A DNA stretch of 48,763 nt from Alphaproteobacteria bacterium (GTDB taxonomy: Bacteria; Pseudomonadota; Alphaproteobacteria; RF32; CAG-239): NCBI GenBank assembly GCA_017480995.1, contig JAFUQJ010000051.1, positions 1-48,763 on the forward strand. Direction: 5' to 3'. Below are positions 2,343-26,099 of this stretch, piece after piece (position 1 is the first letter of the stretch; each line of letters begins with the position of its first letter). Position numbers and translations under genes: made by a program. A model generated the notes under the pieces. The model was not told where the DNA came from. It saw only the letters and a list, made by a program, of their open reading frames with translations, and did not search any database.

Positions 2343-3653
2343 ATGAAGAAAAAAATCACAAAAACATTGGTCGAGAGCGCGGCGACTCCGCAAAATTCAA
2401 AACTTTTAATCTGGGATGAGACAATTTCCGGATTCCATGTTGTTATACGTCCGAGCGGGCGCAAGAGTTTCTATGCTGTATATCGACTGCGTAATCACAA
2501 ACAACAACGTTTGAAGCTTGGCGATTTTCCGGCCATGACGGTTGAGGAGGCGCGCGAAAAATGCAAGGCACTGATGAACCAGGCCTTTGACGGTGTGGAT
2601 CCTTTGGCTGTTATTCGCGAACGCGCAAGGCTTGAAGAGCCGGATCCGGCCAAAAACGGCACGATGCGCGACCTGTATGCCAAATATATGGCCGAGCATG
2701 CGATTTTTAAGAAACCGGCGAGCCGCAAGAACGACGTTATTTACTGGGAAAGGCATATTTTACCGAGAATTGGCGACAAACGCGTGCGCGAGGTCACCCG
2801 CGGTGACATTTCGGCCATCCATAAGGGAATCGGCGCCGAGCTGAACCGCAAGGGCGAACTGATGAAGACGACAGCCAACCGCGTGCTTGAGGTTTTGAAA
2901 AAGGCTTTTTCCCTGGCCGAGGAATGGGAATGGCGGCCGGAGGGCTCCAATCCCGGGGCGCGGATTAAAAAGTTCAAGGAACAGGCCCGCAACCGATATC
3001 TGACACTTCAGGAAGCGGCGGCTCTTGACAAAGTTCTGGTGAAATATCTCGATGCCGGATATCGCGAGCGGCAGGTTGCGCGGCTGGTTCTGATTTTGCT
3101 TTTGGTCGGCGGTCGCAAGCAAGAGATAAGGAATGCCCGCTGGGAATGGGTTAATCTTGAGCGCGGCGTTTTATCCCTGCCGGACAGCAAGTCAAACGAG
3201 CCGCAGGATATCCAGCTGCCGGACAAAGTTTTGGATATTTTGGCGGATATTCGCGAAGATCAGCGGCGGAATAATCGGGAAAGCGACTATATTTTTGACG
3301 GGCACGTTCGCGGCCAGCCGCTTAAAGACGAGGGCAAGCATTGGGACAACATCCGCGCCGAGGCCGGTTTGAAAGATTTCCGCATGCACGATCTGCGCCA
3401 CAGTTTTGCCTCGTACATGGCCATGGCGACAGGATCCGAGCTGATGATCCAGCAAAGCCTGCGGCACGCTGATGCCAAAACGTCGAAACGCTACACCCAT
3501 ATGTTTAATGAGCCTTTGCGTTCGGCGGTCAATCAGACGGCCGGAAAAATTATCGAGGCCATGCGCGGCGATAAAATCGTTGATTTTGAAACGGCCAAGC
3601 AAGCACACCGCAAGGCTAACGACCGCGGTCAGGTGTCCGAACAGACTGCGTGA
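2343..3653 (+). CDS. int: tyrosine integrase (P4-type, tRNA-targeting)
   Basis: N-terminal arm-binding-like region (ISGFHVVIRPSGRKSFYAVYR). C-terminal HDLRHSFAS ... RYTH catalytic motifs. Confidence 0.9.
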   Translation: MKKKITKTLVESAATPQNSKLLIWDETISGFHVVIRPSGRKSFYAVYRLRNHKQQRLKLGDFPAMTVEEAREKCKALMNQAFDGVDPLAVIRERARLEEPDPAKNGTMRDLYAKYMAEHAIFKKPASRKNDVIYWERHILPRIGDKRVREVTRGDISAIHKGIGAELNRKGELMKTTANRVLEVLKKAFSLAEEWEWRPEGSNPGARIKKFKEQARNRYLTLQEAAALDKVLVKYLDAGYRERQVARLVLILLLVGGRKQEIRNARWEWVNLERGVLSLPDSKSNEPQDIQLPDKVLDILADIREDQRRNNRESDYIFDGHVRGQPLKDEGKHWDNIRAEAGLKDFRMHDLRHSFASYMAMATGSELMIQQSLRHADAKTSKRYTHMFNEPLRSAVNQTAGKIIEAMRGDKIVDFETAKQAHRKANDRGQVSEQTA

Positions 3654-4092
3654 GGCTGTTCAGAAACTTGACAACTCCCTCTTTGGCCATAAGGTCGGCT
3701 AAGGCGTTATTGATGGCTTTAAATTGATAGTGACCGGTGTGAGCCTTGACTTTTTCGATTTTTAAGCCCTGCGGGGCGATTTGGTTGATACGGTATGCCC
3801 ATTTGCGGCATTCGAGCCGGTTTTTCTGCTGTTTTGGCGTGAGGGGGCGGTCTTTGATATTGTCGGAAATGTAGGCAATGGCGTTTTGGCTGTCGGTGTA
3901 GAGCGTATGCGGCCCGGGATATTGCTTGATGAGTTCAAGAGCATAATATATGGCGTAGAGCTCGCCGATGTTGTTGTTTTCGGCCTTAATCCATTTTGAA
4001 AAGATGCGGCGCTGCTGTCCGCAGATGATGACACAACCGATTCCGGCAACCCCGTGTTTTTCGTTGAAGCTGGAATCGGTGTATATTATCAT
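3616..4092 (-). CDS. RNase H (type 1) domain protein
   Basis: MIIYTDSS...GIG...GELYAIYYAL...LYTDSQ...KAHTGH resembles the RNase HI DEDD pattern. ATG 4092 overlaps the spanin stop (ATGA). Confidence 0.75.
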   Translation of the reverse strand: MIIYTDSSFNEKHGVAGIGCVIICGQQRRIFSKWIKAENNNIGELYAIYYALELIKQYPGPHTLYTDSQNAIAYISDNIKDRPLTPKQQKNRLECRKWAYRINQIAPQGLKIEKVKAHTGHYQFKAINNALADLMAKEGVVKFLNSLTQSVRTPDRGR

Positions 4093-4280
4093 TTTTCGCA
4101 CCTGCAGGCTTTGATGACGAGTTCCTGACAGTCAAATCCGTTTTCAAGGTCAAGAACGGTTTGTCCGCGCTCACAGGTGTTGACCGGGCAGCAGTTGACA
4201 GGCACATATTTAATGTTGGCCGCGCAGCTGGCGACGGCAAGCACTGAGGTCAACAGAATACAGAGCTTTACAATCCGCAT
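4089..4280 (-). CDS. o-spanin-like lipoprotein (Rz1-like)
   Basis: Start at ATG 4280 after GGGAGG. MRIVKLCILLTSVLAVASC lipobox. Start is embedded in the i-spanin ORF in another frame. Confidence 0.65.
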   Translation of the reverse strand: MRIVKLCILLTSVLAVASCAANIKYVPVNCCPVNTCERGQTVLDLENGFDCQELVIKACRCEK

Positions 4281-4485
4281 TGAGGTTTGCCTCCCTTTGT
4301 TTGAGTTTTTGCTTTTGGTTTTCGAGCGTTTCGGTGTTTTCAATTTTGCACATGGCCGCCCGGACGGCTTTCTTTTGATAGATAGCTTCGGCTGCGGCAT
4401 AGCCTTTGTCGTAGATGAACATTGCACCCCAGAAAAGCACGACAGCTACGATAATGACGACGGCAATAACGGCTCGTATTCTCAT
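4210..4485 (-). CDS. i-spanin-like protein (Rz-like)
   Basis: N-terminal TM helix, then a charged coiled-coil-like region. ATGA overlap with the endolysin stop. Confidence 0.65.
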   Translation of the reverse strand: MRIRAVIAVVIIVAVVLFWGAMFIYDKGYAAAEAIYQKKAVRAAMCKIENTETLENQKQKLKQREANLNADCKALYSVDLSACRRQLRGQH

Positions 4486-4955
4486 GCGTCCACCTCTTTG
4501 GCCAGCTGGACAAGCCGGTTTTTCCAGCCCTCGCGGAATGTCGGCCAGCTTTTGGCCTCGGTGTAGGCATAAAGCCGGTTAATCATAAAAACCGTGTAAA
4601 TGCTGTTTTTTGCTTGACGGGCAGCGGCTCTGGTTTCCTGCCCGATGACACCGTCGGCCGTAATGCCGAGGCTTTCCTGCAGGATTTTAACCGCCTTTGT
4701 AACGCCGTGATTGACGGCGGTGTCAAACAGCATGATATCGAGCGGGTACGGGATTTCCTCGCACTGGGCTTTATCCCAATAATCGCGCTTGTATATGGCA
4801 ATGGCGTCGGCTTTGGTCAGGCTGGCGATGTCAAGACCGGGATAGGCGGCCTGGCTGATGCCGTATTTGGTCAAACCTCCGGCATCGTCTTTGTGATCAG
4901 ACAGAATGCCTTCTTTTTCAAGCGTCAAATTAACAGCGGTTTCAAAATTATTCAT
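4482..4955 (-). CDS. endolysin, GH108 with peptidoglycan-binding domain
   Basis: LEKEGILSDHKDDAGGLTKYGI ... YWD ... DTAVNHG ... ADGVIG pattern. Start ATG 4955 after AAGGAG. Confidence 0.8.
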   Translation of the reverse strand: MNNFETAVNLTLEKEGILSDHKDDAGGLTKYGISQAAYPGLDIASLTKADAIAIYKRDYWDKAQCEEIPYPLDIMLFDTAVNHGVTKAVKILQESLGITADGVIGQETRAAARQAKNSIYTVFMINRLYAYTEAKSWPTFREGWKNRLVQLAKEVDA

Positions 4956-5694
4956 AGCGGTTCTCCTTGATTTGCTGTCCGTCAAAAGCCAGGCCGGTGA
5001 TGCGTCCGTTGATCATCAGGCCGAATTTTTCGACGTCCATAAACATTTCGTAAAAAAATACCCACCAGGTTTTGACTACCTCGATCGACATTTCGTCAGA
5101 TGATAGCAGCTCACGCAATAGCCCGACGTGCGACGACATCCAGACCTTGAACATCTCGTTGATGTAGGCGATTTTGTCCTCGCTCCAGTTTTCACCGCTT
5201 AACTTTTGGCGGACGACTTTTTGAACGGCGTCGATAGCGCCGCAGGCAATATGATGGTGGGTTTTGCGGTAGCTGGTGAAGTCCTCGTTTTTGATTTTGC
5301 CCTGCCGATAGTCATTATACATGGTGGTGAAGCCCTTAAAAAAAGCCTCAAACATGGTTTTGACAAGGTATTGATAAAAGCGGTTGCGGCCTGGATCGCG
5401 GTCAATTTGCAGATCCGAGATGCGGCAGATGAGCCCGTAGATCTTTTCGGCAAATTTCTCGTAGCGCAAATCGCACAGTTCAATAACTTCGAGCTGGCGC
5501 TCGGCTTTGGCGCGATATCTGCCGGAGCAATGCCGGAGGATAACCGACCCGAGGCGGCGCAGGGGTTGCTCATATTTTATCCAGGCCAGCACACCCAGGC
5601 AAAACAGGGTTATCGCCAGCAAAAGCCAAATAAACGGGTTGCCCTCTGCCAAAAGCATGACGATGTTATCCCAGTTTAGCCTGATGTCTGACAT
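4948..5694 (-). CDS. membrane protein of unknown function (upstream of endolysin)
   Basis: One N-terminal TM helix (FIWLLLAITLFCLGVLAWI), then a helical soluble part. Position fits a holin or lysis regulator but its size is atypical. Confidence 0.5.
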   Translation of the reverse strand: MSDIRLNWDNIVMLLAEGNPFIWLLLAITLFCLGVLAWIKYEQPLRRLGSVILRHCSGRYRAKAERQLEVIELCDLRYEKFAEKIYGLICRISDLQIDRDPGRNRFYQYLVKTMFEAFFKGFTTMYNDYRQGKIKNEDFTSYRKTHHHIACGAIDAVQKVVRQKLSGENWSEDKIAYINEMFKVWMSSHVGLLRELLSSDEMSIEVVKTWWVFFYEMFMDVEKFGLMINGRITGLAFDGQQIKENRYE

Positions 5695-5700
5695 TTTCCG

Positions 5701-6075
5701 CTACTCCGTCAATTCTTCAACTTCTTCAATCGTAAAACCGAGACGAAAGATTTCGGCGTTCGGATCTTCGACAAGGGTAAAAATTGACCATTTTTCCGGC
5801 TCGCCATCTTTGGCCGTGTTGATCAGTCTTGAGTTTTCGCCGTTGTCGAGCTCGGCTCTGGCGGCGGCATTGGCGGCAATAGTCTCGTTTTCTTCGGCCT
5901 CGGTGGCGCCGTCCGGTACGGGAACCGGCTCAAAAACCTCGCCGCTGTCTTTCCAGATAAAGCGGTCGGCGGCCAGAGAGCGCAGGCGTTCTTTTGCCTG
6001 GTCCGTGTATTCGGGGTCGGCCAAAAGGTTCAAATAGTCTTGTTTGGTGCAGAAAATTTTAGGAAATCCTCTCAT
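5701..6075 (-). CDS. hypothetical acidic protein downstream of the DGR RT
   Basis: 124-aa ORF, tightly packed in the RT operon. No motif recognised. Confidence 0.55.
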   Translation of the reverse strand: MRGFPKIFCTKQDYLNLLADPEYTDQAKERLRSLAADRFIWKDSGEVFEPVPVPDGATEAEENETIAANAAARAELDNGENSRLINTAKDGEPEKWSIFTLVEDPNAEIFRLGFTIEEVEELTE

Positions 6076-6089
6076 TTTTTTGTGTCCTT

Positions 6090-6440
6090 TCAGATGATTT
6101 TGAGCGCGCGGTCATCTTTGACAATCGTGCCGACACGCGGCAGTTTGTCTTTGAAAACTTCGAGCGTTTTGGTTATGTTTTTAGACTGCGTGAAAAATAT
6201 ATGCTTTTCGCCGTCTACAATGATTTGCACCTTGGTCACGGATTCGCCGAAACGCTTGTATTGACTGGGTGCAACGCTAAAATCCACGAAGACAATCTTT
6301 TTGTTCAAAAGCTTGTCAACGGGGATTTTCGAGCCGACAAAGCCGCTTTGCTCATTTGATTTTCTGAGCATTTCCGGATCATCGGCAAAAGCCGGATAAT
6401 TGTCATAATCTGGCGAGGATGTCATTTGCTGTTCTTGCAT
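6090..6440 (-). CDS. hypothetical protein overlapping the RT 3' end
   Basis: 116-aa ORF overlapping the RT by up to 38 nt; start uncertain. No motif recognised and not Avd-like by eye. Confidence 0.5.
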   Translation of the reverse strand: MQEQQMTSSPDYDNYPAFADDPEMLRKSNEQSGFVGSKIPVDKLLNKKIVFVDFSVAPSQYKRFGESVTKVQIIVDGEKHIFFTQSKNITKTLEVFKDKLPRVGTIVKDDRALKII

Positions 6441-7446
6441 TTTTTGAGGCCTCTCTTAACCGGTCAAGATCAAGTTTTATTCGCAGATTGTATGTTTTTG
6501 CCCATTTCATCCAGCCGTCATAACTGGCAATGACCGAACGAAACTGCTCAGCCGTTATTTTGTGCCGGTGCAGATTGTAGACGGCTTTTTTGATGCGTTT
6601 GCGCGCTCTTTTGGCTGTTGACTTGCGCAGCAGTATGTATTCCGGAAAATGGCGGTAACCCAGAAAATCAACACCGCGGCTGACGGGAAAAAGGTCGCAT
6701 TTGCTCATGCGGAGCCGGAGCCTGTCGGTTAAAAACTGCCTGATTTTGGCGGCGGCATCGTTCAAAACTTTTTTGTCGTTGTGAAAAAGGCAAAAATCGT
6801 CGCAATAGCGCAGGTAGCATTTGATTTTGAGCTGATGCCGGACAAACTGGTCAAGCTCATTCAAATACAGATTGCCAAACCATTGGCTGGTGAAGTTACC
6901 GATCGGCGTGTTGGTTTCGCCGGGAAAGCTGTCAATAATGTCATCAATCAGCCACAGGACGTCTTTATCTTTAATTTTGCGGCGGACGATGCTTTTTAAA
7001 ACATCGTGGTTGATGGACGGATAAAATTTTGAAATATCGCATTTCAGGCAATATCTGTTGCCGCGGATATATTCCATTGTCTTCAGGCTGCCCTTGTGCA
7101 TGCCTTTGTTGTCGCGGCAGGCGTAGGATTCCGCAATAAACAGATTATCCCAAATCGGGATTAAAACGTTCATTACCGCGTGCTGGACAATACGATCGGG
7201 GTTAAACGGCAAAATATAAATAGTCCGGCGTTTGGGTTCAAAAACGGTTTTGGTGCTGTAATGCGCCGTTGTGAAGGTCTTGTTGACCAGGCTTTGACGT
7301 ATTTTTTCAAGATTGTTTTCCAAATCGCGGTTAAAGAGACGCACATTGCGCTTTTTGCCCTTGCCGAGCTTTGCCTGCTCATAGGACAAGCGGATGTTTT
7401 CTTTGGTGATGACACTCGGCCACAAATTTCCGTATCTTTTAACCAT
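6403..7446 (-). CDS. DGR reverse transcriptase
   Basis: RT domain with IGNFTSQ (DGR hallmark [ILV]GxxxSQ) and YCDD catalytic motif. Lies beside the TR/VR pair. Confidence 0.9.
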   Translation of the reverse strand: MVKRYGNLWPSVITKENIRLSYEQAKLGKGKKRNVRLFNRDLENNLEKIRQSLVNKTFTTAHYSTKTVFEPKRRTIYILPFNPDRIVQHAVMNVLIPIWDNLFIAESYACRDNKGMHKGSLKTMEYIRGNRYCLKCDISKFYPSINHDVLKSIVRRKIKDKDVLWLIDDIIDSFPGETNTPIGNFTSQWFGNLYLNELDQFVRHQLKIKCYLRYCDDFCLFHNDKKVLNDAAAKIRQFLTDRLRLRMSKCDLFPVSRGVDFLGYRHFPEYILLRKSTAKRARKRIKKAVYNLHRHKITAEQFRSVIASYDGWMKWAKTYNLRIKLDLDRLREASKNARTANDILARL

Positions 7447-7526
7447 TTCAATCCTTATTTTGCAGAAGCCGGGGTTTCGTTTTGGGCTACTAGCCCGGCA
7501 TTGCCTCCGTTTTTGTGTTTTGCCGA

Positions 7527-7554
7527 CTGCGGTTCCCGTTGTCCGGGCGCGCGG
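7527..7554 (+). repeat. inverted partial VR/TR-like segment (fold-back partner of TR)
   Basis: ctgcggttcccgttgtc is complementary to 7664-7680 (16 of 17). gcgcgcgg is complementary to 7612-7619. Confidence 0.7.
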
Positions 7555-7606
7555 TGCGACATGGATAAATATCTCAGCCGGAGTTATCCAAGAGGATTAA
7601 ACCGTA

Positions 7607-7719
7607 TCCGCCCGCGCGCGCCATTATTGACATTCGTATTCGAAAGCGAATTATTCGCATTGCGACAACGGGAACTGCAGTTCGAGGAATTGTCCCAGTT
7701 GCCTCCTGCCAGAAGCACC
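7607..7719 (-). repeat. DGR template repeat (TR), 113 bp
   Basis: Gapless alignment to VR1 at offset 222. Adenine-rich AAY codons in the VR frame. Non-coding, between target gene and RT. Confidence 0.9.
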
Positions 7720-7802
7720 CGGTAATGTACTGCTCGTGATAAATATTTACCCAAAACCTTCATATTTTTTTGCCTTTTCTTTTTAATTAAAAAGAATTTG
7801 CC

Positions 7803-9290
7803 CTAGTTTGGCATCCTCTTTGGCAGGCTCCGCCCGCGCGCGCCATTAGCGACATACGCAAGCGAAAGCGAATGATCCGCAATGCGACAACGGGAACCGC
7901 AGTCCGAGGAACTGGCCCAGCGGCCCCCCGCCAGAAGCACCATACAGGAGCCGTAGAACGAACCTTCGTCGCCGTTCTGGCTGTTCCAGTTCGCACCGCC
8001 GGCGGCGTGAGTTTCGGCCAAATGTTGCCATTGCAGGCCGCACATTTCCTCACAACCTATGTTTGATACCATTCTGCGGCCGGCTGTGTCGCTGTGGCCT
8101 CCGGTTGTGTCCGGGCTCGGCTGTTTGGAGCCGCTGACAACGGTTTTTTGGTTGCTGCCTTTGGACGCCGAATAGAATTCTTCATCATGCAATAACGTTT
8201 TTTTGACCGAGCGCTGGTCATCCACAAAATCAAAGTGCATTCTGGTGTTGGCTCGGGTGCCGCCGTAGACCGATTTTGTGTTGGCGCCGGTGCCGGACTG
8301 ATTATAGATGTCAACCCAGACATCATTAACGTCGTCATAAACCATGCCTTCCGGCTCGGATATCGGCCGGTGGTTTAAGCACCACACCGAGGCGGGCAGA
8401 ATGTCGCCGGCAACGTAACCGGACAGCGGATGACCCGAGATTGTGCCGACATTGCTGCATTCGGTGTGAAATCCGCCGATTTTGCGCGAGTTGTCCGCCG
8501 AATATCCGCCCGGATAGGTAGAGTTGAGCGAAACAACAAATTTTGTGCCATTGTCGCCTTCCGGTACCAAAAAGATGTGATAGTCCTTGCCGGCCGAGAA
8601 TGACGCGCCGGAATCCATCAGCGACTGGCAGTTGATAACTTCATCCGAGGTTTGCTGGCGCCAGCGTGACACGCCGTCGACTTCCAGACGGATGATACTC
8701 CCCGCCTTGATGGTGATGTTGCGCTTGCCGTTGACGACCAAAAACGGGTTGACCTGGAAGAAGGTGTCATAATTGGCCACGCCCGAGGTTTCGTAGGAGG
8801 TTGAGATGAACTCCCAGTAATTCCCTGCGGCGTTCCAGGAAAATTCCACTATGGCGCCGGTTAAGAGGTCGCCGGAGCTTAAATCTGCGGTGCCGGCATA
8901 TTTTTTTGCCGGTTTGGCACCGGTGCCGTAGGCGTTGATGGTTGCTGAGCCGCTGTTTGGGTGAACGACCTTGAAACGGATGCGCTGTCCGTCGGTTAAG
9001 GCGCTGTATTGTACCTGCCCGGTTGACGACAGCACATAAACGTTGGCCGCGGATGACGAGGCCTCTGCGCAAAAGTCGGAAATGGTGGCGGCCTCAAACA
9101 AAGCGGTGCCGAGCTGATTGTTGGCCTCTGCCGGCGTCATGCCCAGTTTGGTGATGGCCGCGACGATTTCACGTTGCGGATTTTCAAGAGCTCCGGCCGG
9201 AATGATTGAACCTTCCTGTCCGTTGGCAGGGTCCGCATTGACGTATATAGCGTCTGGATCTTCGGAATTTAAAGGCGGTGTGTATTTCAT
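7803..9290 (-). CDS. tail fibre / receptor-binding protein, DGR target
   Basis: Tail-fibre position after the baseplate genes. C-terminus CMVLLAGGRW..DCGSRCR..GARG looks like a CLec/FGE-type fold and contains VR1. Confidence 0.85.
   Translation of the reverse strand: MKYTPPLNSEDPDAIYVNADPANGQEGSIIPAGALENPQREIVAAITKLGMTPAEANNQLGTALFEAATISDFCAEASSSAANVYVLSSTGQVQYSALTDGQRIRFKVVHPNSGSATINAYGTGAKPAKKYAGTADLSSGDLLTGAIVEFSWNAAGNYWEFISTSYETSGVANYDTFFQVNPFLVVNGKRNITIKAGSIIRLEVDGVSRWRQQTSDEVINCQSLMDSGASFSAGKDYHIFLVPEGDNGTKFVVSLNSTYPGGYSADNSRKIGGFHTECSNVGTISGHPLSGYVAGDILPASVWCLNHRPISEPEGMVYDDVNDVWVDIYNQSGTGANTKSVYGGTRANTRMHFDFVDDQRSVKKTLLHDEEFYSASKGSNQKTVVSGSKQPSPDTTGGHSDTAGRRMVSNIGCEEMCGLQWQHLAETHAAGGANWNSQNGDEGSFYGSCMVLLAGGRWASSSDCGSRCRIADHSLSLAYVANGARGRSLPKRMPN
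7829..7941 (-). repeat. DGR variable repeat VR1
   Basis: 17 mismatches to TR, all at TR adenines (manual alignment). GC-rich IMH-like 3' end ggcgcgcgcgggcgg. Confidence 0.9.
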
Positions 9291-9293
9291 TTT

Positions 9294-9908
9294 TTACTCC
9301 TTTGGTGTTGCGTAACTTAGTTTGATGATGGTGTGGGCGGGCTTGATGCGGTTAAGCAGGCACTCCAGATCTTCCGCCCAGGTAATGCGGCAAAGGACTT
9401 CACCGCAAACAGCCGTGCCGCAGCGCGCATAGCTCAGGCGCGCGCCGTCCACAATCGTGATCCAGTAATAATTGGCCTCGGTTGCGCCGCCGAGGTTTTC
9501 GCCGCAGCGGGCAATGCCGCAGACAGACGGCGGGGTGGTGACAATGCTGACGTTGTAGCCTAAGAAATTGGCCAGTTTGGCAAAGTTTTCCTTGGTCGGC
9601 GAAATATTGCGGTTGATTTTGGCAATCACCGCGTTGACACGCTCGTAAAATGTCTGACCTTCGGCGTGGTTTCCGTGTTCGCAGGGCTCCGGGAGCTCCA
9701 GCATTGCCTCCCAGTCGACAAGCGTTTCCTCGCAGGTGTCGGGGAACATCTCGCGGGCGGCCTTCTCAACTCTTTGGTGGATATAGAAGAAAAATGCCGC
9801 GGCGGCGTCGCCGAGTTTGGACATATCCGACTTCGGGCTGCGGCTCCATGCCGGGCCGCTCGGCATCAGGTTTTGAAAAAGTTTTTTGTAGTCTGACTGA
9901 TCCATCAC
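9294..9908 (-). CDS. tail protein, Mu gp48-like (DUF2313-like)
   Basis: LFQNLMPSGPAW N-terminal motif. Sits between baseplate J and the fibre. Confidence 0.65.
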   Translation of the reverse strand: MMDQSDYKKLFQNLMPSGPAWSRSPKSDMSKLGDAAAAFFFYIHQRVEKAAREMFPDTCEETLVDWEAMLELPEPCEHGNHAEGQTFYERVNAVIAKINRNISPTKENFAKLANFLGYNVSIVTTPPSVCGIARCGENLGGATEANYYWITIVDGARLSYARCGTAVCGEVLCRITWAEDLECLLNRIKPAHTIIKLSYATPKE

Positions 9909-25786: not shown

Positions 25787-25891
25787 CTTCTGGCAGGGGG
25801 CGCCTGGGACAGATCCTCGTACTGCGGTTCCCGCAGTCGCTTTGCGTGGGGTTCGCTTTCGGACACGTCTGTCTATACTGGCGCGCGCGGG
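25787..25891 (+). repeat. orphan VR-like cassette VR3
   Basis: Gapless match to sense TR positions 5-109. 17 adenine-site and 5 other differences (manual). Hairpin at 25912-25931 follows. Confidence 0.8.
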
Positions 25892-25944
25892 TTGATCCGT
25901 GCCAAAGGGATCTTTTGCGAACACGCAAAAGAGGCGGCCTGTAT

Positions 25945-26054
25945 GGTGCTTCTGGCGGGAGGCTCCTGGGACATTTCCTCGGATTGCGGTTCCCGCTGTC
26001 GTACTGCGGACAATTCGCTTTCGGTTGCGTATGGCAATTATGGCGCGCGCGGGC
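25945..26054 (+). repeat. orphan VR-like cassette VR4
   Basis: Gapless match to sense TR positions 1-110. 13 adenine-site and 5 other differences (manual). Hairpin at 26071-26096 follows. Confidence 0.8.
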
Positions 26055-26099
26055 ATATCCGCCAAAATAACTTTTTCTTCCCTTGGAAGTAAAAAGGCA

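Follow-up and report, generated by a model that had tools for sequence, protein, structure and literature searches.

An inverted TR-derived insert in the spacer RNA of a BPP-1-type DGR from an alphaproteobacterial prophage

The DGR locus

The DNA analysed here (the window) comprises 48,763 nt of contig JAFUQJ010000051.1 from an Alphaproteobacteria bacterium (RF32; CAG-239; assembly GCA_017480995.1). Within a prophage tail module it carries a DGR locus, designated W, all parts of which lie on the minus strand. The target gene (7803–9290) encodes a Mtd-like phage tail fibre of 495 aa (Pfam mtd_2nd, E = 5e-25; PHROG tail protein) and is preceded by baseplate J and Mu gp48-like genes (Pfam). The 3′ end of the fibre gene forms the VR (7829–7941), a 113-nt direct repeat with 85% identity to the TR (7607–7719; 113 nt), which lies around 85 nt beyond it. 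All 17 differences between the two repeats fall at TR adenines, and the same confinement to adenines is seen in at least 60 relatives. A G/C-only stretch of 15 nt (GC14/IMH-like; 7608–7622, minus strand) marks the TR 3′ end; a run of this kind is also present in BPP-1. The reverse transcriptase (RT) gene follows after a 160-nt spacer (6403–7446; 347 aa; Pfam RVT_1; phrog_1423, E = 6e-119), and its product and BPP-1 bRT share 35% identity over 324 aa (E = 8e-59). With its Mtd-like target, its adenine-specific TR/VR differences, and a DGR-clade RT adjoining the TR, the element is, with high confidence, a classical DGR of the BPP-1 type, arranged in the order fibre gene with VR, TR, spacer, RT.

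The nearest genomic relatives are prophages in MAGs of uncultured gut and rumen Alphaproteobacteria. One related locus, L161, has an RT 98% identical to that of W and the same TR, yet the two VRs differ at many sites, all of them TR adenines. As this shared TR and these diverged VRs show, the DGR of the window is active despite the insert in its spacer described below.

Unlike BPP-1, W has no avd between VR and TR; the gap of about 85 nt leaves no space for one, and the neighbouring ORFs have no Pfam match. The Avd accessory protein is a four-helix bundle (PF05635-like). No Avd-family match was found in the prophage, and the genome's sole PF05635 match, located on a different contig, falls short of the cut-off. 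Instead, an ORF of 115–116 aa (6090–6440, minus strand) overlaps the 3′ end of the RT gene; it has no Pfam match and was found in all examined relatives with an RT identity of at least 66%. Its AF2 model is beta-rich (pLDDT 75), with weak, OB-fold-like matches in the PDB. The ORF was therefore rejected as an Avd, the model not being a four-helix bundle, and is regarded as a candidate non-Avd accessory protein of this avd-less DGR family.

An RNase H gene (3616–4101, minus strand; Pfam RNase_H, E = 4e-18) lies downstream of the RT in the same strand block, after an endolysin-like gene at 4482–4985. On the other side of the element, an AT-only perfect palindrome of 10+10 nt (TTCTTTTTAATTAAAAAGAA; 7777–7796) begins 7 nt past the fibre stop codon, between the VR and the first strand of the stop duplex described in the next section; it could be a weak terminator or the counterpart of the post-VR hairpin in BPP-1.

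A conserved spacer RNA

Reverse transcription in DGRs requires an intricate spacer RNA, which, to our knowledge, has been studied in one element only, BPP-1. The BPP-1 DGR RNA consists of the avd 3′ end, the TR, and the Spacer (Sp); Sp47–56 pairs with TR117–129, Sp59–70 pairs further upstream, and 2 nt separate the two spacer strands (Handa et al., NAR 2018, PMC6182149; cryo-EM preprint, bioRxiv 10.1101/2023.10.23.563531). For comparison, 247 loci related to W were fetched, and VR, TR, spacer, and RT were definable in about 100 of these. All share one architecture—VR, short gap, TR, a spacer of 110–190 nt, RT—and none of the about 100 has an avd between VR and TR. Their spacers can be aligned and contain conserved motifs.

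One long-range pairing in this RNA is a stop duplex. In W, its 5′ strand (UGGGUAAAUAUUU; 7741–7753, minus strand) lies 22–34 nt upstream of the TR and pairs over 13 bp with a 3′ strand in the spacer (AGAUAUUUAUCCA; 7562–7574, minus strand); by position, the duplex is the homologue of the avd:Sp cPRT Stop in BPP-1, which has 11–12 bp. Across the family, the spacer region between a GGCUG motif and the stem-loop P3 pairs with sequence some 20–35 nt upstream of the TR. The paired sequences are wholly different between clades (GGGUAAAUAUUU with AGAUAUUUAUCC in W; GGCUGACAGGUC with GAUCUGUCGGCC and UGGUUGUGGCGCC with GGCGCUACAACC in others); the energy is −19.5 kcal/mol for strands of the same locus compared with −11.0 kcal/mol for strands of different loci, and in 76 of 78 loci the own pairing is better than the median of the cross pairings. 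[quoted passage not shown] RNAalifold also proposed a small hairpin, GGCUGG...GGCC; the long-range stop duplex was preferred and the hairpin rejected.

Immediately 5′ of the stop strand lies a primer-like strand (CUCCGGCUG; 7575–7583, minus strand), conserved throughout the family as AACUCCUGGCUG. A priming role for this strand is suggested by its position relative to BPP-1 Sp47–56. The family motif AACUCCUGGCUG pairs with ACAGG past the TR end, with covariation apparent by eye and a weak preference for own over cross pairing (47 of 78 loci); in W the template:primer pairing is limited to CGG/CCG. The CUCCG of the primer-like strand is also the 5′ strand of a helix, P2, the 3′ strand of which (CGGAG; 7505–7509, minus strand) comes after an A-rich single strand (AAAACACAAAAA). 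P2 is an extra covarying helix of the W family that sets it apart from BPP-1, its pairs (CUCC/GGAG) being canonical in 100–105 of 106–107 sequences with three to four pair types each.

Between stop strand and A-rich segment stands the stem-loop P3 (7521–7561, minus strand), the positional homologue of BPP-1 Sp71–78. Its base, UGUC/GGCA (7558–7561 with 7521–7524), is canonical in 108–109 of 109 sequences, again with three to four pair types per position. Last before the RT comes the long stem-loop P4 (GCCGGG...CUAGUAG...CGAAA...CCCGGC; 7465–7499, minus strand), with 11 covarying pairs in the family alignment; RNAalifold finds P4 also within the subclade that contains W, with compensatory changes. 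P2, the P3 base, and P4 are thus each supported by RNAalifold and by pair counts. By its position, P4 is the counterpart of the bRT-binding stem-loop of BPP-1 and a putative RT-binding element.

The order of the family spacer—small proximal stem-loop, primer-like strand, stop strand, P3, A-rich single strand, P4, RT—is established with high confidence and matches the cryo-EM description of BPP-1 (bioRxiv 10.1101/2023.10.23.563531), including a stop duplex, a short stem-loop followed by adenosines (AAAACACAAAAA), and a long stem-loop before the RT start. Homology of the single elements to those of BPP-1 is suggested by position and covariation rather than by a sequence model; Rfam models gave chance-level matches only in the window from 6000 to 9500 (all E at least 0.36). 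The architecture of the BPP-1 RNA, with a strongly covarying stop duplex, is therefore maintained in a large phage DGR family without an adjacent avd; the comparison makes it easier to apply the cryo-EM model to other DGRs and to design TRs for DGR-based mutagenesis tools.

An inverted copy of the TR in the spacer

An earlier note on this DNA had pointed out that spacer positions 7527–7543 are the reverse complement of TR segment 7664–7680 at 16 of 17 positions, that 7547–7554 is complementary to 7612–7619 in the GC-rich TR end, and that the two pairings are nested. These observations were borne out, by reading of the sequence and by a repeat search. The search extends the first match to 17 of 18 positions (94%; 7526–7543 with TR 7664–7681), places the 8-nt GC pairing between 7546–7554 and 7612–7622, and finds a perfect 19-nt reverse complement between spacer 7525–7543 and VR 7886–7904. 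With the segments in the order 7527–7543, 7547–7554, 7612–7619, and 7664–7680, the nesting is evident. The spacer piece is VR-like, as the note had described it: the lone TR mismatch sets a spacer C against TR adenine 44, where the VR carries G.

The copy is an insert of 33 nt (GCACCGCGCGCCCGGACAACGGGAACCGCAGUC; 7525–7557, minus strand) in the apical loop of P3. Read as its reverse complement, it consists of TR/VR positions 38–56, one C, and then GGGCGCGCGG, which resembles the GC-only TR end; about 40 nt of TR/VR are missing between the two segments. The insert is thus an inverted, internally deleted TR/VR-like copy, and its arms therefore pair with the TR in nested order. One arm (7525–7543) forms a helix, H1, with TR 38–56 (AACUGCAGUUCCCGUUGUC; 7664–7682, minus strand), a segment that encodes a C-(S/G)-S-R-C motif and has its conserved core at TR 45–53. 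The other (about 7546–7556) forms a second helix, H2, with the G/C-only stretch at 7608–7622.

The match far exceeds chance. The longest complementary run between spacer and TR with at most one mismatch has 17 matches, compared with a mean of 8.0 and a maximum of 13 in 1000 spacer shuffles, and the energy of the insert:TR duplex in W has a z of −6.6 against dinucleotide shuffles. With up to three mismatches, the 19-mer occurs six times in the window, where 0.02 occurrences are expected, each time in a VR/TR-type copy. Since alternating GC runs are self-complementary, the GC helix carries little weight by itself; this spacer stretch is, besides, a direct repeat of the TR end at 83% identity.

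Position and distribution of the insert

Along the transcript of W, the stop strand (7574–7562) is followed by the P3 base (7561–7558, paired with 7524–7521), and the apical loop of P3 is taken up by the insert (7557–7525). The insert is located directly 3′ of the stop strand and is flanked by the covarying P3 base pairs. Across the family, the apical part of P3 ranges from a GAAA tetraloop (4 nt; for example in L135 and L058) up to 34 nt. TR-like inserts, of 28–34 nt, are confined to a subclade with an RT identity of at least 76% to W (clade A), represented by nine lineages (W, L161, L001/L247, L168, L002/L236, L233/4, L235, L238, and L245); of these, L161 and L168 were added from metagenome and genome scans, and L233–L238, L245, and L247 from Logan look-ups. 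Sister clades, with RT identities of 64–70%, have nothing or a short unrelated hairpin at the insert site.

The complementarity follows the same boundary. In seven clade-A loci, the P3:TR duplex has a z of −5.1 to −6.6; in L234, also of clade A, it has dropped to −1.1. Outside clade A, loci with a P3 apical part of at least 12 nt all have z > −2.8, without significant TR complementarity, and their best sites are spread along the TR and do not cluster at the position of H1. A family-wide Sp:TR helix was likewise rejected after an ungapped search in 68 IMG/VR relatives, which gave chance-level runs of 8–10 nt only. Conserved complementarity among related DGRs, on which the earlier note had made its fold-back depend, is hence found in part: distant DGRs lack it, and the close clade keeps a 9-bp core. 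The note's broader suggestion of a spacer built from a piece of VR/TR is not supported for the spacer in its entirety, the scaffold being conserved, covarying, and unrelated to the TR, and the copy being only the 33-nt insert.

Its placement also bears on priming of cDNA synthesis, to which the note had tied the fold-back: the insert is in the P3 loop, 3′ of the stop strand, and the BPP-1 primer strand is 5′ of it. For the fold-back to serve priming, it would position the spacer such that H2 acted as the template:primer duplex and H1 as a stop-like or positioning duplex. The nested geometry is indeed like that of the two BPP-1 pairings, the insert arms in W are separated by 2–3 nt much as the BPP-1 strands are by two, and H2 adjoins the GC-rich TR end, the expected region of initiation. 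Such a role is nonetheless improbable, as the BPP-1-equivalent positions are already filled by the family-wide covarying stop duplex and the conserved primer-like strand, the insert is enclosed in P3 beyond the stop strand, and it is missing from the sister clades and about 90 other relatives of the same RT family. Nor does H1 suit a cPRT Stop: it pairs with TR 38–56 inside the TR, and VR differences are present on both sides of it, so H1 does not end the cDNA. The insert is real and TR-derived, and is neither a primer nor a stop element.

The insert has cDNA polarity and starts with the complement of the GC-rich TR end. As to its origin, it might be a fossil of a branched RNA–cDNA product that marks the priming site, but its position, around 25 nt 3′ of the primer-like strand, lends this idea no support.

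In four loci of another clade (L007, L009, L013, and L165), the P3 extension (CGGUAGGUGAAAACCGAAAGG) resembles the P4 core motif (YUAGUAGG..CCGAAAG). Pieces of the element's own RNA thus seem to become inserted at the P3 tip.

Ancestry of the copy

The perfect match to the VR could be taken as a sign that the insert acts on the VR rather than on the TR, as a 19-nt antisense to the fibre mRNA or to VR DNA, either regulating expression or guiding spacer-linked cDNA in homing. The match is 19/19 to the VR as opposed to 17/19 to the TR, and the VR may be on the same transcript as the TR because the minus strand showed no sigma-70-like promoter in the VR–TR interval. The difference between the two matches has a simpler source. 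All nine clade-A VRs have G at position 44, in the GGT codon for the Gly of CGSRCR, and the same base is present in sister-clade TRs, so the insert C opposite A44 reflects the ancestral state of the TR. With G fixed in the VRs by the protein and ancestral in the TR, the 19/19 match needs no VR-directed function, and was rejected as a sign of one. Other lineages match the VR no better than the TR (15/19 and 12/19), and the cDNA already has the same sequence, such that a second guide would add nothing obvious. A role directed at the VR is accordingly very doubtful.

In clade-A TRs, position 44 (window 7676) is an adenine, though every VR has G there. The template therefore mutagenises a position at which just one outcome seems tolerated.

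Least credible of all is a function in the DNA itself, whereby the inverted repeat formed by the spacer with the VR or TR would drive inversion or a cruciform. A perfect 19-bp inverted repeat does lie 342 bp from the VR, but inversion would disrupt both the fibre gene and the TR–RT unit, none of 12 clade-A loci has an inverted arrangement, and cruciforms do not extrude from arms 120–342 bp apart.

Three more VR-like cassettes with a GC-rich end were located by pattern searches and then read, at 24547–24698 and 25787–26096 on the plus strand, the DGR being on the minus strand. Their base at TR position 44 is G, and they have the same orientation as the spacer fragment. Cassettes and insert are both ectopic plus-strand VR/TR copies in one prophage; the cassettes, which are gene-less, are full-length with GC-rich/IMH-like ends and downstream hairpins, whereas the insert is 33 nt long, internally deleted, embedded in a structured RNA, and without the IMH-like tail GCCTGCCAAA. 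The element has, so, made copies of its own repeat before.

Possible selection on the TR pairing

Pairing in H1 was tabulated by hand across clade A; MAFFT places the insert of W and L161 one column out of register. A 9-bp core (TR 45–53, GUUCCCGYU, with spacer ARCGGGAAC) is intact in all eight tabulated lineages except L233/234, where a single mismatch and a single wobble occur. Positions s4, s5, and s10–12 of the insert are unpaired in the local hairpin of P3 and paired in H1, and are conserved in eight of nine lineages, while the neighbouring loop positions s1–s3 vary freely. In favour of selection, too, the insert has persisted in a clade whose more loosely constrained spacer regions are down to 66% identity. 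Each helix also has one compensatory change: in H1, TR U52C with spacer A to G (L001/L247/L168), and in H2, TR C100G with spacer G to C (L002/L236). Covariation is thin, with one such event per helix among about eight to nine lineages. Moreover, the TR strand of the core is constrained in any case by the protein motif CGSRCR, and the spacer CGGG also serves the local hairpin; conservation alone is therefore no proof of TR pairing.

The main rival to a function in TR pairing is that an inverted TR/VR fragment, or a cDNA of the TR, came to rest in an insertion-tolerant P3 tip as a relic, where only the local hairpin is selected and the complementarity to the TR is decaying without a role. This is nearly as likely as the clamp proposed below. 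P3 tips are highly variable in the family (4 to 34 nt), sister clades and the rest of the family function without an insert, and the same phage holds the further ectopic VR-like copies in the same orientation, so that the element evidently spawns copies. A good local hairpin (−13 to −17 kcal/mol) is available to the P3 of every clade-A locus. In three lineages (L233/234, L235, and L238), substitutions that preserve or improve this hairpin (ACG/CGU in L238; GCGC/GCGC in L233) have disrupted the outer 5 bp of H1, and identity within clade A is 79% in the insert compared with 91–93% in the scaffold (66% in P4 plus tail). Against a mere relic stand the nucleotides that are paired only in H1 and yet conserved beside freely varying loop positions, as well as the two compensatory double changes. 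The energy of the fold-back itself, considered next, argues in the same direction.

Folding of the RNA and a possible clamp on the template

The minus-strand RNA from 7760 to 7447 has an MFE of −112.1 kcal/mol (z = −3.9), and its predicted structure contains both H1 and H2, with H1 pair probabilities of about 1.0. For the naked RNA, folding thus predicts the fold-back that the earlier note had anticipated, with the insert paired to the TR middle and to the GC-rich TR 3′ end. Enforcing the canonical helices gives −94.3 kcal/mol, around 18 kcal/mol less stable, again for naked RNA. The insert can also close as its local hairpin. Because its pairs cross those of the stop duplex, P2, and the P3 base, the full fold-back and the canonical arrangement are mutually exclusive in a nested fold. 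Were a fold-back 18 kcal/mol stabler merely harmful, it should be counterselected; W has instead extended the pairing to 19 bp, with a DGR that is still active, which counts further against a relic.

An intermediate arrangement was modelled in which a core tether (TR 45–55) coexists with the lower P3 stem. Before any pseudoknot penalty, it is 4–11 kcal/mol better than the local hairpin in seven of eight lineages; RNAfold does not score pseudoknots, so the tether model and this comparison of energies are rough. Such a tether would be compatible with a working scaffold.

Pairing of this kind has a precedent in engineered BPP-1. In the reconstituted system, TRs that sequester Sp or avd by pairing bring about markedly less mutagenic reverse transcription (bioRxiv 10.64898/2026.06.12.731847), and strong TR–spacer pairing is therefore expected to matter. 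In this DGRec system, as in W, TR–spacer pairing competes with required interactions (there Sp–Sp and avd–Sp); it arises by accident in synthetic TRs, involves the first ~30 spacer nt, and lowers activity (bioRxiv 10.64898/2026.06.12.731847). In clade A, by contrast, the pairing is natural and inherited, is located in an accessory loop, and occurs in a DGR that still diversifies its VR. The BPP-1 description on which this comparison draws mentions no counterpart of the 33-nt TR-complementary insert in P3.

The leading explanation, still a tentative one, is that the insert is a TR-derived, bistable extension of P3 acting as a tether or clamp on the TR, through which cDNA synthesis is modulated and probably gated; the clamp mechanism as such is put forward with moderate confidence. 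In one state, the insert would close on itself as the P3 hairpin, which fits the canonical, RT-competent scaffold. In the other, a core of 9–11 bp would form between TR 45–55 and the P3 tip, the lower P3 stem would stay shut, and the looped-out template would be tethered. W carries the longest version, its pairing having grown to 17–19 bp plus the GC helix, a form that excludes P3, P2, and the stop duplex in a nested fold. The insert would thus be a clade-specific RNA–RNA clamp on the template that most likely gates or restrains cDNA synthesis.

A bolder and distinctly less likely proposal is that the P3 insert is a natural RNA switch made from the template. Free DGR RNA would be left inert in a locked state (in W, with the scaffold dismantled), and binding of the RT or an accessory protein would capture the local hairpin co-transcriptionally, thereby licensing cDNA synthesis; its origin would be the insertion of an inverted TR or cDNA fragment. 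If this is true, DGR mutagenesis would have a self-templated governor that acts in cis. As a natural DGR that is still active with a stable insert complementary to its TR in a non-essential loop, W offers a test case for how much TR–spacer pairing the ribonucleoprotein tolerates or exploits, and for whether activity is gated at the level of RNA folding.

The TR region also contains an ORF of 59 aa (7584–7763, minus strand), which starts 44 nt 5′ of the TR and reads the TR in the frame of the VR (MKVLGKYLSRAVHYRVLLAGGNWDNSSNCSSRCR...). Its ATG is kept in clade A, and it is annotated as a gene of 58–61 aa on three related contigs. Translation of this ORF would unwind the TR and the 5′ strand of the stop duplex.
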